Shown: one piece after another, positions 62,149-63,575 of the stretch
Layout of the letters: every line of letters begins with the position of its first letter
How positions within the stretch are numbered: position 1 is the first letter of the stretch
IMG/VR virus record: IMGVR_UViG_3300032053_013883
Location: 1,326-65,325 of that record
Length of the DNA: 64,000 nt
Direction: 5' to 3' (one strand)
Source: a virus
Taxonomy: Duplodnaviria > Caudoviricetes
The notes under the pieces: generated by a model
Told to the model about the DNA's origin: nothing
The model's database searches: none
The model's input: only the letters and a program-made list of their open reading frames with translations
Position numbers and translations under genes: made by a program

Positions 62149-62493
62149 TTATTTTTCACTAAAAGCTAACTTTATATTACTAACAAGTTTTTTTGTTAAA
62201 ATTCCAGGCTCCAAACATATCGCGGTTAAAACACTTCCTAGATCTTCCTCGAAAAATTTCGAATAATGTATATTAAGCTCATCGCTCTTTTTACATAATT
62301 CATTTAATTCTTTTTCAGAAGAAACTGCTAATAGACAAATATAATTAGAATTATTAAACCATAATTTATCTATCTCTGGATGATCATTTGAAAATTGCCT
62401 TAATGCATGGCACAATTGTGATGCTTGCTGCCCATAACTCAAATCTTTTCTTGTTACTACGTATAATTTATCCCCTAATTTAACCTATTCCAT
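62149..62493 (-). CDS. pth2: Peptidyl-tRNA hydrolase Pth2 family, in-frame TAG at codon 3
   Basis: GGAG-N6-ATG GAA TAG GTT...; KLYVVTRKDLSYGQQASQLCHA, W, LTAICLEP, IKL Pth2-type motifs. Confidence 0.85.
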
Positions 62494-63064
62494 TTTTATC
62501 TCCAAAAAGCTTCTTAACAACTGCGTTTCCCCTACGATTAATTTGATTCCACTTAATTTTAAATGATTGAGAATCATATCCGCCAAATAATTCAGCATTG
62601 GAATGTATCTCTGCCAACCCAACAATAAGCAATGTAATTGCTTCCGGTTTTTTAATAAACTCATCAATATCTGCTGCCTTCATCGTATGAATTATCATAT
62701 CCATACGAATTAGCTTAGCTACAAGCGCATTACCGCCTATTGATAGCCATGTGTCATACGATACCTCAGCATGATTGGGGAAATGCCTACAACCCTCTTC
62801 ATCCAATCTTAAACAATAAGGCTTGCCTATATCATGGTACAGAGTATACTCTTCAATAATGTTATCTGGATATAATTTGCTTAATATTTCGAATCGATAG
62901 GTTAAAAACCAATCTGGCAATTTATAATGATTATTACATCCCGTTTTCAATATTTCTATTAATTTGAATGTATGATTTTGAACAGATAATCCATGTTCAT
63001 AAACTGATTGATTCTCAGTTTGTTTACAACATTTCATATCCTCAATTGCTTGAATCTAGAGCAT
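62480..63064 (-). CDS. HD-domain phosphohydrolase, in-frame TAG at codon 3
   Basis: GAGGT SD then ATG CTC TAG ATT CAA, in frame with the tracked ORF; SVYEH, HDIGKP, HFPNHA..S. Confidence 0.8.
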
Positions 63065-63065
63065 A

Positions 63066-63446
63066 TTAAACCTCGCCTCTAATCCAAGCATTAATATTAT
63101 CTATATTAACATTATAATGTTTACCTTCCAAATAAGGAAGATGAGTATATATAATTTTTAAAATGGTGTGTGGGCTTGGAGCGCCAGAATTAAAATATTT
63201 CTTTTCCATTAAACCATAGGCTTTGCCACGAAGAAAAGCATATGTTAATAAATGATTTCTGATATCTTGACTTATTGGAAACTTATGACAAGCAATTTGA
63301 TTTGCTTTATCAACTGATAAAGCTTTATATTGATGCTTTGTTATAAGTTTAGATTGTTCCGAAAGTCCTTTAATCTTGCCAATTAATAAAAACTTTGCCG
63401 TTGAAAACCAACGATACTTTGATGCTTCTTTTAAATAATTTCTCAT
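63066..63446 (-). CDS. Hypothetical phage protein, first gene of the pth2 operon
   Basis: SD TAAGGAG; KIKGL...R..LLTYAFLRG..Y...E. Confidence 0.75.
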   Translation of the reverse strand: MRNYLKEASKYRWFSTAKFLLIGKIKGLSEQSKLITKHQYKALSVDKANQIACHKFPISQDIRNHLLTYAFLRGKAYGLMEKKYFNSGAPSPHTILKIIYTHLPYLEGKHYNVNIDNINAWIRGEV

Positions 63447-63457
63447 AATAATTCTCC

Positions 63458-63538
63458 TTATAGGTTAAACAAACATTGATAAAATTGAGTTTGCTTAAAT
63501 TTAGGAGGGCTACGAGATCTAATCTAGAAATGTGTCAT
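63458..63538 (-). promoter_or_regulatory. Leader peptide/translational attenuator: MTHF*IRSRSPPKFKQTQFYQCLFNL
   Basis: TAG at 63524-63526; RSPP; final TAA overlaps the SD of the next gene; anti-SD hairpin. Confidence 0.75.
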
Positions 63539-63575
63539 GATTATTAATATATCCTTTTATTAATATAATTTTATT

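Follow-up and report, generated by a model that had tools for sequence, protein, structure and literature searches.

The subject of this analysis is an operon on the minus strand (63554-62149) of a 64,000-nucleotide stretch of phage DNA (Duplodnaviria; Caudoviricetes), referred to here as the window, which is the final 64,000 bases of the single 65,325-base contig IMGVR_UViG_3300032053_013883. The contig has about 29% G+C, and the minus strand holds nearly all long open reading frames (ORFs) of the window. The operon comprises, in this order, the motif GGATATATTA, a 27-codon leader, a gene for a protein of 126 amino acids (the 126-aa gene), a gene for an HD-superfamily phosphohydrolase (HD) and a gene for a Pth2-family peptidyl-tRNA hydrolase (Pth2). 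Comparison with related loci suggests that every cistron of this conserved phage operon is probably subject to a translational lock, and that the key to the lock is UAG decoded as a sense codon, in relatives by tRNA(CUA). Such an operon would represent a natural, deeply conserved, gene-specific stop read-through that serves as a single-operon switch without recoding of the genome.

Early TAG codons in the operon

The first-pass annotation of this DNA had reported three in-frame TAG codons, at leader codon 5, HD codon 3 and Pth2 codon 3, and all three were found. The leader ORF (63458..63538, minus strand) reads MTHF-TAG-IRSRSPPKFKQTQFYQCLFNL-TAA. It begins ATG-ACA-CAT-TTC-TAG, with the ATG at 63538-63536 and the TAG at 63526-63524, and then continues with I-R-S-R-S-P-P (MTHF-TAG-IRSRSPP). 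The R-S-P-P codons occupy 63514-63503, and the closing TAA (63460-63458) overlaps the Shine-Dalgarno sequence (SD) of the 126-aa gene. The 126-aa gene (63066..63446, minus strand) encodes a basic protein and has no TAG of its own. The HD gene (62480..63064, minus strand, 194 codons) starts ATG-CTC-TAG (ML-TAG-IQAIEDMKCC), with the ATG at 63064-63062, the TAG at 63058-63056, an internal ATG at 63037 and a GAGG 6 nucleotides (nt) 5' of the first ATG. The Pth2 gene (62149..62493, minus strand, 114 codons) starts ATG-GAA-TAG (ME-TAG-VKLGDKLYVV), with the ATG at 62493-62491, the TAG at 62487-62485 and a GGAG 6 nt 5' of the ATG.

Conservation of the early TAG codons

The conservation set consisted of 51 sequences: the window, 11 IMG/VR loci and 39 metagenome loci. 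The Pth2 gene begins ATG-(1-4 codons)-TAG in all 43 sequences in which its start could be assessed (seven have no such gene on the contig and one lies at a contig edge). An early TAG is present in HD in 43 of 48 assessable sequences, 41 of which have an ATG of their own for HD; the three other sequences have the N-terminus off the contig. In L132 (508) and L133 (2238) the stop codon of the 126-aa gene is itself a TAG, in frame with HD, which there has no ATG of its own, and the HD protein of these two loci appears to be producible only as a read-through extension of the 126-aa protein. No TAA or TGA was found in the early-stop role among the 51 sequences, and conservation on this scale greatly exceeds what would arise by chance.

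The 11 IMG/VR loci, whose HD homologues are about 60% identical, all have an in-frame TAG 7-8 codons before the conserved Asp-Met of HD, with the exception of L010, where this distance is 14 codons after a small duplication. In all 11, Pth2 stands next to HD; its start has the form ATG-(1-2 codons)-TAG, and the residues IK-x-GDKLYVITR come next. U never directly follows the TAG, and 25 of 28 distinct Pth2 contexts have A at this position. The position of the TAG is codon 3-9 in most loci, internal in the phages GAP32 and Kaldavass and in L146, and the stop of the upstream gene in L132 and L133. A TAG that shifts in this way yet persists fits selection for a stop rather than for a particular residue.

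The segment 62100-63600 is covered at 99% or more by contigs of four sediment-metagenome runs, from four studies, and the seven substitutions and two single-base deletions listed among them leave every TAG intact. A look through the listed runs for RNA reads of this stretch found none. The same TAGs occur in the independent contigs L135 and L137 (96-99% identical) and L112 (74%). The early stops are kept in the homologues and are not assembly errors, two of the points on which the first-pass annotation had made its reading depend. Almost no credence can be given to the explanation that the operon consists of pseudogenes or arose by assembly error. Some broken copies do circulate, since contigs of two of the four runs, as well as L135, have a single-base deletion at 62777 that shifts the frame of HD; the TAGs, however, are kept across loci that span 29-99% identity and are present in contigs of all four runs.

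Two side observations concern the end of the Pth2 gene. Contigs of three of the four runs branch at 62152, directly after the Pth2 stop, which suggests strain variants that differ between Pth2 and the neighbouring gene for a protein of 57 amino acids (the 57-aa gene). In L066 (LR756500.1, 4331-4375) a second ATG-AAA-TAG-ATT stands right after the Pth2 stop with only 12 further codons, and may be the remnant of a lost HD gene start.

Coding status of the sequence after the TAG

The stretch after the TAG is probably coding for several reasons. First, the Asp codon before the conserved Met of HD varies synonymously, being GAT in 19 of 34 distinct sequences and GAC in 13. Secondly, no ATG, GTG or TTG lies between the TAG and the first beta strand of Pth2 in any of 29 distinct sequences. 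Third, residues 2-12 of HD form a confident helix that spans the TAG site in the AlphaFold2 (AF2) model. In addition, the PTH2 domain match covers the read-through protein from residue 9 onwards, and the first canonical start codon downstream of the TAG, TTG 62442, comes only later; an intact Pth2 would thus require passage of the TAG.

These observations also bear on an explanation without any switch, in which the early TAG throttles expression to a low constitutive level by background read-through, and the ATG-x-TAG of HD is a small upstream ORF with re-initiation at the internal ATG. This would account for the HD ATG 9 codons after the TAG, which is kept in 34 of 34 distinct sequences, and the two-codon ORFs do resemble minigenes. 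However, Pth2 offers no start codon at which translation could resume before its first strand (29 of 29), and the TAG-to-Met stretch of HD is conserved as protein, with synonymous changes, and helical in the model. A weak SD would be a cheaper throttle, and the linkage to tRNA(CUA) described below would be left unexplained. For these reasons, we regard a throttle of this kind as very unlikely.

Other routes of expression were considered and rejected. Entry into Pth2 by a +1 frameshift from HD, or initiation at a non-canonical codon beyond the TAG, was dropped because the codons that follow the TAG are not near-cognate start codons and differ from locus to locus. The use of UAG itself as the initiation codon was rejected because the SD spacing suits the ATG and the TAG is found at codon 3 to 9.

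Leader, putative arrest motif and Shine-Dalgarno pairing

The 18 distinct leaders share the form M-x(2-7)-TAG-(I/V/L/A)-x-x-R-(A/G/S)-P-P. The putative arrest motif is RAPP in 10 of them, RGPP in five and RSPP in three, the last being the form of the window, and it lies 39-74 nt before the SD, near the end of the small ORF directly upstream of the 126-aa gene. The first Pro codon is CCT in all 18 leaders, so that the sequence CCUCC is invariant. In the window, the predicted SD-sequestering structure (63454..63508, minus strand) pairs CCUCC (63508-63504) with GGAG (63457-63454) and encloses an inner hairpin. The first-pass annotation had claimed that the SD of the 126-aa gene is paired with the leader after the TAG, and pairing of the anti-SD CCUCC with the SD GGAG indeed appears in the minimum free energy fold of 17 of the 18 distinct leaders, the window included. 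Its wider claim, that every cistron appears to need UAG read-through, also holds for the predicted layout, directly for HD and Pth2 and by way of the leader for the 126-aa gene, and this layout is conserved in relatives.

The structure was assessed by single-sequence folds and dinucleotide shuffles. The anti-SD-to-SD region has a mean z of -4.0 against the shuffles, with all 18 leaders below -1.7, and the inner hairpin alone averages -2.3. RNAalifold found no consensus structure for the MAFFT-aligned leaders, owing to poor alignment of the inner hairpin. The 126-aa gene is always accompanied by the leader in the loci examined. The idea that the leader is a chance mini-ORF was rejected, as the same motif is present in every locus with the 126-aa gene.

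Arrest peptides with RAPP or RGPP (ApdA, ApdP and ApcA; SecM has RAGP) resemble the leader in that a small ORF with R-(A/G)-P-P lies just upstream of another gene, and a stalled ribosome would open the ribosome-binding site of that gene, as proposed here (PMC12992588). In the mutagenesis described there, RAPP and RGPP are strong arrest motifs and stall ribosomes with many upstream sequences, whereas RSPP is partially permissive (PMC12992588). The leader differs from these peptides in that its motif stands behind an in-frame UAG and would be reachable only after read-through, and in that only 11-16 residues would have been made at the putative stall point. The known peptides of this kind serve as monitors of secretion or membrane insertion rather than of decoding (PMC12992588, in the part available). 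The leader would combine two mechanisms, in that an amber codon stands ahead of a RAPP-type arrest motif by which an SD is kept hidden or released. On a bolder and rather doubtful reading, an amber-gated RxPP leader would, if true, be the first arrest peptide stimulated by a change in decoding.

tRNA(CUA) genes in relatives

By ARAGORN, each of the 11 IMG/VR loci has one or two tRNAs whose anticodon is CUA. Among the 30 loci with at least 1.5 kb of flank after the gene pair, a co-oriented tRNA(CUA) follows at a distance of 52-2081 nt in 26; one of the 26, L113, is an odd call with a four-base loop. No other tRNA comes between the gene pair and the tRNA(CUA) in 23 loci, or in 24 when L113 is counted. 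The contigs of these relatives are parts of larger genomes, each of about 430 kb and with 34-53 tRNAs. Transfer-messenger RNA (tmRNA) and tRNA-Thr arrays precede the operon in many of them (L001, L011, L112, L113, L116, L126, L130 and L134), and the homologue of the 57-aa gene often follows directly after the tRNA(CUA). The gap between Pth2 and the 57-aa gene measures only 20 nt in the window; L112 has a 104-aa ORF in that gap, and no tRNA remnant was found near its Pth2. The tRNA(CUA) has no paralogue above 70% identity in G002, a complete relative of 447,763 bp. All of the tRNA(CUA) genes are short-arm, and they fall into at least two sequence types.

The module is also present in several cultured phages, among them the jumbo phages XacN1, pT24, RsoM2USA, GAP32 and Arash, which makes it directly testable. 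XacN1, Xoo-sp13 and CM1 have an HD-Pth2 fusion with the TAG at codon 3-4, and pT24 has the reverse fusion, Pth2-HD, with the TAG at codon 3; each fusion has a single early TAG. RsoM2USA has HD with the TAG at codon 4, and Salmonella phage Arash has Pth2 with the TAG at codon 3, annotated as a 50-aa fragment. In GAP32 and Kaldavass, a TAG internal to HD (ELDTG-TAG-GDPV) splits HD into several annotated coding sequences. In the mycobacteriophages ScoobyDoobyDoo (L151, 1474-2090) and Catera (L152, 2474-3178) the annotated GTG start of Pth2 follows directly after GTG-TAG or ATG-TAG, and the next gene after Pth2 is tRNA(CUA), annotated as tRNA-Arg in Catera. A tRNA(CUA) was found in GAP32, Kaldavass, pT24, Arash, LR756500, RsoM2USA, Xoo-sp13 and CM1, and of the cultured phages checked, all those with the TAG carry one (for XacN1, according to PMC5852040). 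The comparison also exposes mis-annotated starts and gene fragments in public phage records, which place starts downstream or split genes (for example, XacN1 ORF364, pT24 BPT24_235, Arash gp84c and GAP32_398/398A/399).

In L067 (LR745208.1, 4019-4499) Pth2 has a GTG start and no in-frame stop, and an ochre-reading tRNA(UUA) follows about 80 nt later. Covariation of anticodon and stop was considered at this locus and discarded, as its Pth2 has no stop to covary.

Weighing of the evidence

The first-pass annotation had proposed that the phage senses failure of UAG termination, and among the causes it listed a phage suppressor tRNA last. Loss of release factor 1 (RF1), its leading trigger, is now the less likely one, and the suppressor tRNA is favoured by the linkage in 26 of 30 loci and by the cultured phages. 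Its suggestion to look for a CUA-anticodon tRNA had a divided outcome: such a gene is absent from this 65,325-base contig and present beside the operon in those 26 relatives.

A sensor of RF1 failure would have the TAGs report lost UAG termination, due to a host defence, a drug or a phage factor, and would turn on a rescue operon with no dedicated tRNA. Such a sensor would suit the window's lineage, which has no tRNA(CUA) beside the operon, and it would agree with the early stops all being UAG, the only stop read by RF1 alone, and none UAA or UGA. The tmRNA that adjoins the module in relatives also points in this direction. However, a tRNA(CUA) directly downstream on the same strand in most relatives is hard to explain if the tRNA has no role, and a ribosome at UAG that lacks a cognate tRNA would be expected mostly to wait or drop off rather than complete the protein. 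We therefore consider the RF1 sensor unlikely.

Several observations weigh against a lock opened by tRNA(CUA). First, no tRNA of any kind was found in the window or in the full 65,325-base contig. In the lineage to which the window, L112 and L132 belong, the genes after Pth2 do not include a tRNA(CUA), and 4 of the 30 relatives have none nearby. Secondly, five of the 48 assessable HD genes (L139, L140, L141, L142 and L146) have no N-terminal TAG. In L139-L142, Pth2 precedes HD; Pth2 has the TAG in L139-L141, and its start is off the contig in L142. In L146 there is no Pth2 on the contig, and a TAG internal to HD takes the place of a Trp that is invariant elsewhere (W52 in the protein of the window). 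Third, the conserved internal ATG of HD would allow a shorter HD to be made without read-through. Fourth, the RSPP of the window would be a weaker arrest form, and the ribosome would stall with a nascent chain of only about 11 residues. Lastly, the tRNA(CUA) genes are diverse and point to no particular amino acid for insertion at UAG.

The first of these points means that the key is missing from the visible sequence, as neither the contig nor its lineage shows a tRNA(CUA). The contig, however, is only part of the phage genome. The tRNA(CUA) genes of cultured relatives lie far from the HD and Pth2 genes, and a distant copy is therefore plausible for this phage, which presumably has a tRNA(CUA) elsewhere in its genome. 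The lineage of the window adds a version of the module without an adjacent tRNA.

Genome-wide use of TAG

The window and G002 are not TAG-recoded genome-wide. By stop codon, the window ORFs of at least 100 aa comprise 62 with TAA, 26 with TGA and one with TAG. Reading TAG as sense barely extends the window ORFs, less than reading TGA as sense does, and the other window genes have ordinary SD-ATG starts, with upstream TAGs that are incidental. Among the 300 ORFs of at least 150 aa in G002, 207 end in TAA, 79 in TGA and 14 in TAG; same-frame splits number 10 for TAG, 10 for TGA and 69 for TAA. G002 was also scanned for SD-ATG frames that meet a stop within 9 codons and stay open for at least 90 codons afterwards; of these, HD and Pth2 alone show conserved coding sequence ahead of the next start. 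The hallmarks of code 15, an in-frame TAG in a large share of genes and a gain in coding density, are absent from both the window and G002.

A TAG-sense code (code 15) throughout the phage, under which the TAGs would be ordinary sense codons, could be suspected from the rarity of TAG as a stop in the window (1 of 89 ORFs of at least 100 aa). This is extremely improbable, given the small gain from TAG as sense, the normal SD-ATG starts elsewhere and the presence of at least one ORF, of 95 aa, that ends in TAG, and given that in G002 TAG does end 14 of 300 long ORFs and TAG splits are no commoner than TGA splits.

The 95-aa ORF lies on the minus strand at window 31491-32444, where its TAG is in frame with a 222-aa ORF (...LLSQM-TAG-VNMDNKNG), and suppression would fuse the two. 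This is the sole same-frame TAG junction of two ORFs of at least 70 codons in the window.

Predicted proteins

Pth2 of the window matches Pfam PF01981 (E 5.3e-8; 33.5 bits against a cut-off of 23) over residues 9-96, covering profile positions 2-99 of 115; the NCBIfam Pth2 models match it below their cut-off (25 bits against 126). HD does not reach the curated cut-offs for Pfam HD (E 0.12; 13.1 bits against 22) and for HDIG TIGR00277 (E 6.5e-5; 22.7 against 27.6) and is assigned to phrog_14850, a family of unknown function. The residues H24, H77-D78, H98, D122, H126 and H154 of the HD motif are invariant in 10 sequences, and the AF2 model, with a mean predicted local distance difference test score (pLDDT) of 91.5, matches the HD hydrolases PgpH, PhnZ, OxsA and YfbR at Z 8-9.5. 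By motif and predicted fold, and not by profile score, the protein is a divergent member of the HD family. A pattern scan with the HD alignment, a limited search, found no HD relatives in bacterial genome contigs.

The top structural match of HD is the C-terminal part of a class-II tRNA nucleotidyltransferase (3wfo_A; Z 11.2, root-mean-square deviation 3.6, 158 aligned), which was also found by Foldseek (E 0.016, probability 1.00) and by a PDB profile search (E 0.0046). The second is the HD-like domain of GlyRS beta (Z 10.0); for helical folds, Z values below about 13 may be generic. The link to tRNA ends that the first-pass annotation drew for HD is thus weakly supported, in that the best matches are tRNA-binding HD-like domains. 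The 126-aa protein has no Pfam, PHROG or NCBIfam match, and its AF2 model (pLDDT 87.7) is a confident helical hairpin with an uninformative best PDB match (Z 6.7).

The occurrence of fusions in both orders argues that HD and Pth2 act together. A bacterial Pth reverses acetyl-aminoacyl-tRNA made by a toxin, according to the available part of PMC9241777. It is reasonable to infer that HD and Pth2 may reset tRNA 3' ends.

Proposed mechanism

In the absence of read-through, ribosomes would end at leader codon 5, HD codon 3 and Pth2 codon 3, and the SD of the 126-aa gene would remain closed by its pairing to CCUCC in the Pro-Pro codons of the leader. If UAG is read through, a ribosome would make I-R-S-R-S-P-P and presumably pause on the RxPP motif; the paused ribosome would cover the anti-SD and so free the SD of the 126-aa gene. 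Read-through would also yield full-length HD hydrolase and Pth2. These two enzymes would most likely act on tRNA 3' ends, Pth2 by deacylation or removal of the peptidyl group and HD by a phosphoester step. Both the read-through itself and the stalling at RSPP we infer from sequence.

Relation to known systems

In Streptomyces, the bldA tRNA(Leu,UAA) controls TTA-containing genes. The likeness is that one dedicated tRNA would act as the trans-acting translational activator of a few codon-bearing genes; the difference is that the codon read by bldA, though rare, is a sense codon in the code of the cell itself, whereas in the operon a viral tRNA would read a stop codon. The prfB gene for release factor 2 is autoregulated through an early in-frame UGA, which is escaped by a +1 frameshift, and it senses its own product. 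Here too an early in-frame stop would tie the synthesis of a translation factor to recognition of that stop; in contrast to prfB, the frame runs straight through and the input would be tRNA or RF1 activity.

The comparison with bldA allows a further proposal, which is tentative and rather doubtful: the tRNA(CUA) of standard-code jumbo phages and cluster-C mycobacteriophages may be no stage on the way to recoding but a dedicated trans-acting regulator, a viral counterpart of bldA, with the three UAG locks of this operon as its sole conserved clients. The lock would then be a checkpoint on the supply of phage tRNA (transcription, processing, CCA end and charging), for which a single tRNA would serve as reporter, before HD-Pth2 and the helical partner strip or reset tRNA 3' ends. 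If true, the purpose of the checkpoint could be to seize the tRNA pool of the host, or to reverse the action of host toxins by which the ends of tRNAs are blocked.

In recoded phages with suppressor tRNAs, which read TAG or TGA as sense, 26-71% of genes have in-frame stops and coding density collapses under code 11; it has been proposed that these stops delay the translation of chosen genes until the tRNA is present, and standard-code relatives that already carry a suppressor tRNA have been noted (10.1101/2021.08.26.457843, in the part of its text available). The present module is like these phages in that a viral tRNA would override a stop codon of a standard-code host. It differs in that the genome is normal under code 11 and a single operon is involved, with three frames, a stop always near the 5' end and linkage of the operon to the tRNA gene in relatives. 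Neither 'hydrolase' nor 'HD domain' occurs in the available part of that text (10.1101/2021.08.26.457843). Synthetic feed-forward loops have also been built in which an amber codon in the target and a co-induced suppressor tRNA remove leaky expression (PMC7969014, in the part available). Those loops are engineered, whereas the module described here is natural and conserved; it could supply compact parts for synthetic biology in the form of tRNA-operated translational locks.

XacN1 carries two tRNA(CUA) genes for which, in the available part of their report, the authors state that no target could be found (PMC5852040), and Atu_ph07 is another standard-code jumbo phage with an orphan suppressor tRNA (PMC6102473, likewise in part). 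For XacN1 we propose a candidate target, the HD-Pth2 fusion ORF364, which begins ATG-AAG-TAG upstream of its annotated start. The operon may thus offer a target for orphan suppressor tRNAs, which are carried by many standard-code jumbo phages. Among the literature searched, no paper connected a phage tRNA(CUA) with early TAGs in genes for Pth2 or HD, or with an arrest leader gated by an amber codon.

Upstream motif and flanking sequence

The motif GGATATATTA (63545..63554, minus strand; family form GGATATATAA) lies 6-16 nt 5' of the leader ATG, and the leader itself has no well-spaced SD. The pattern GGATATATWA has a single match in the window, against 0.83 expected by chance. The motif GGATATAT(A/T)AA, often with TAATAA just 5' of it, was recognised by eye upstream of most of the 18 leaders. 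The GGATATATTA motif may be an operon-specific promoter, which would give a nearly leaderless mRNA, or an mRNA 5' element.

In L137 (58-407; 99% identical to the window region 63066-63538), a tmRNA with the tag ANDNADPIALAA lies about 2.2 kb upstream of the leader, a position past the end of the window. On the plus strand of the window at 63590-64000 there are short overlapping ORFs with repeated K-x-G-K-I/T-x-S motifs (for example, ...GKPRSDETKEKISKANKGKITSDAAKEK), which we take to resemble the NUMOD-type repeats of a homing endonuclease. This set of ORFs seems to be broken across frames and continues past the end of the contig.

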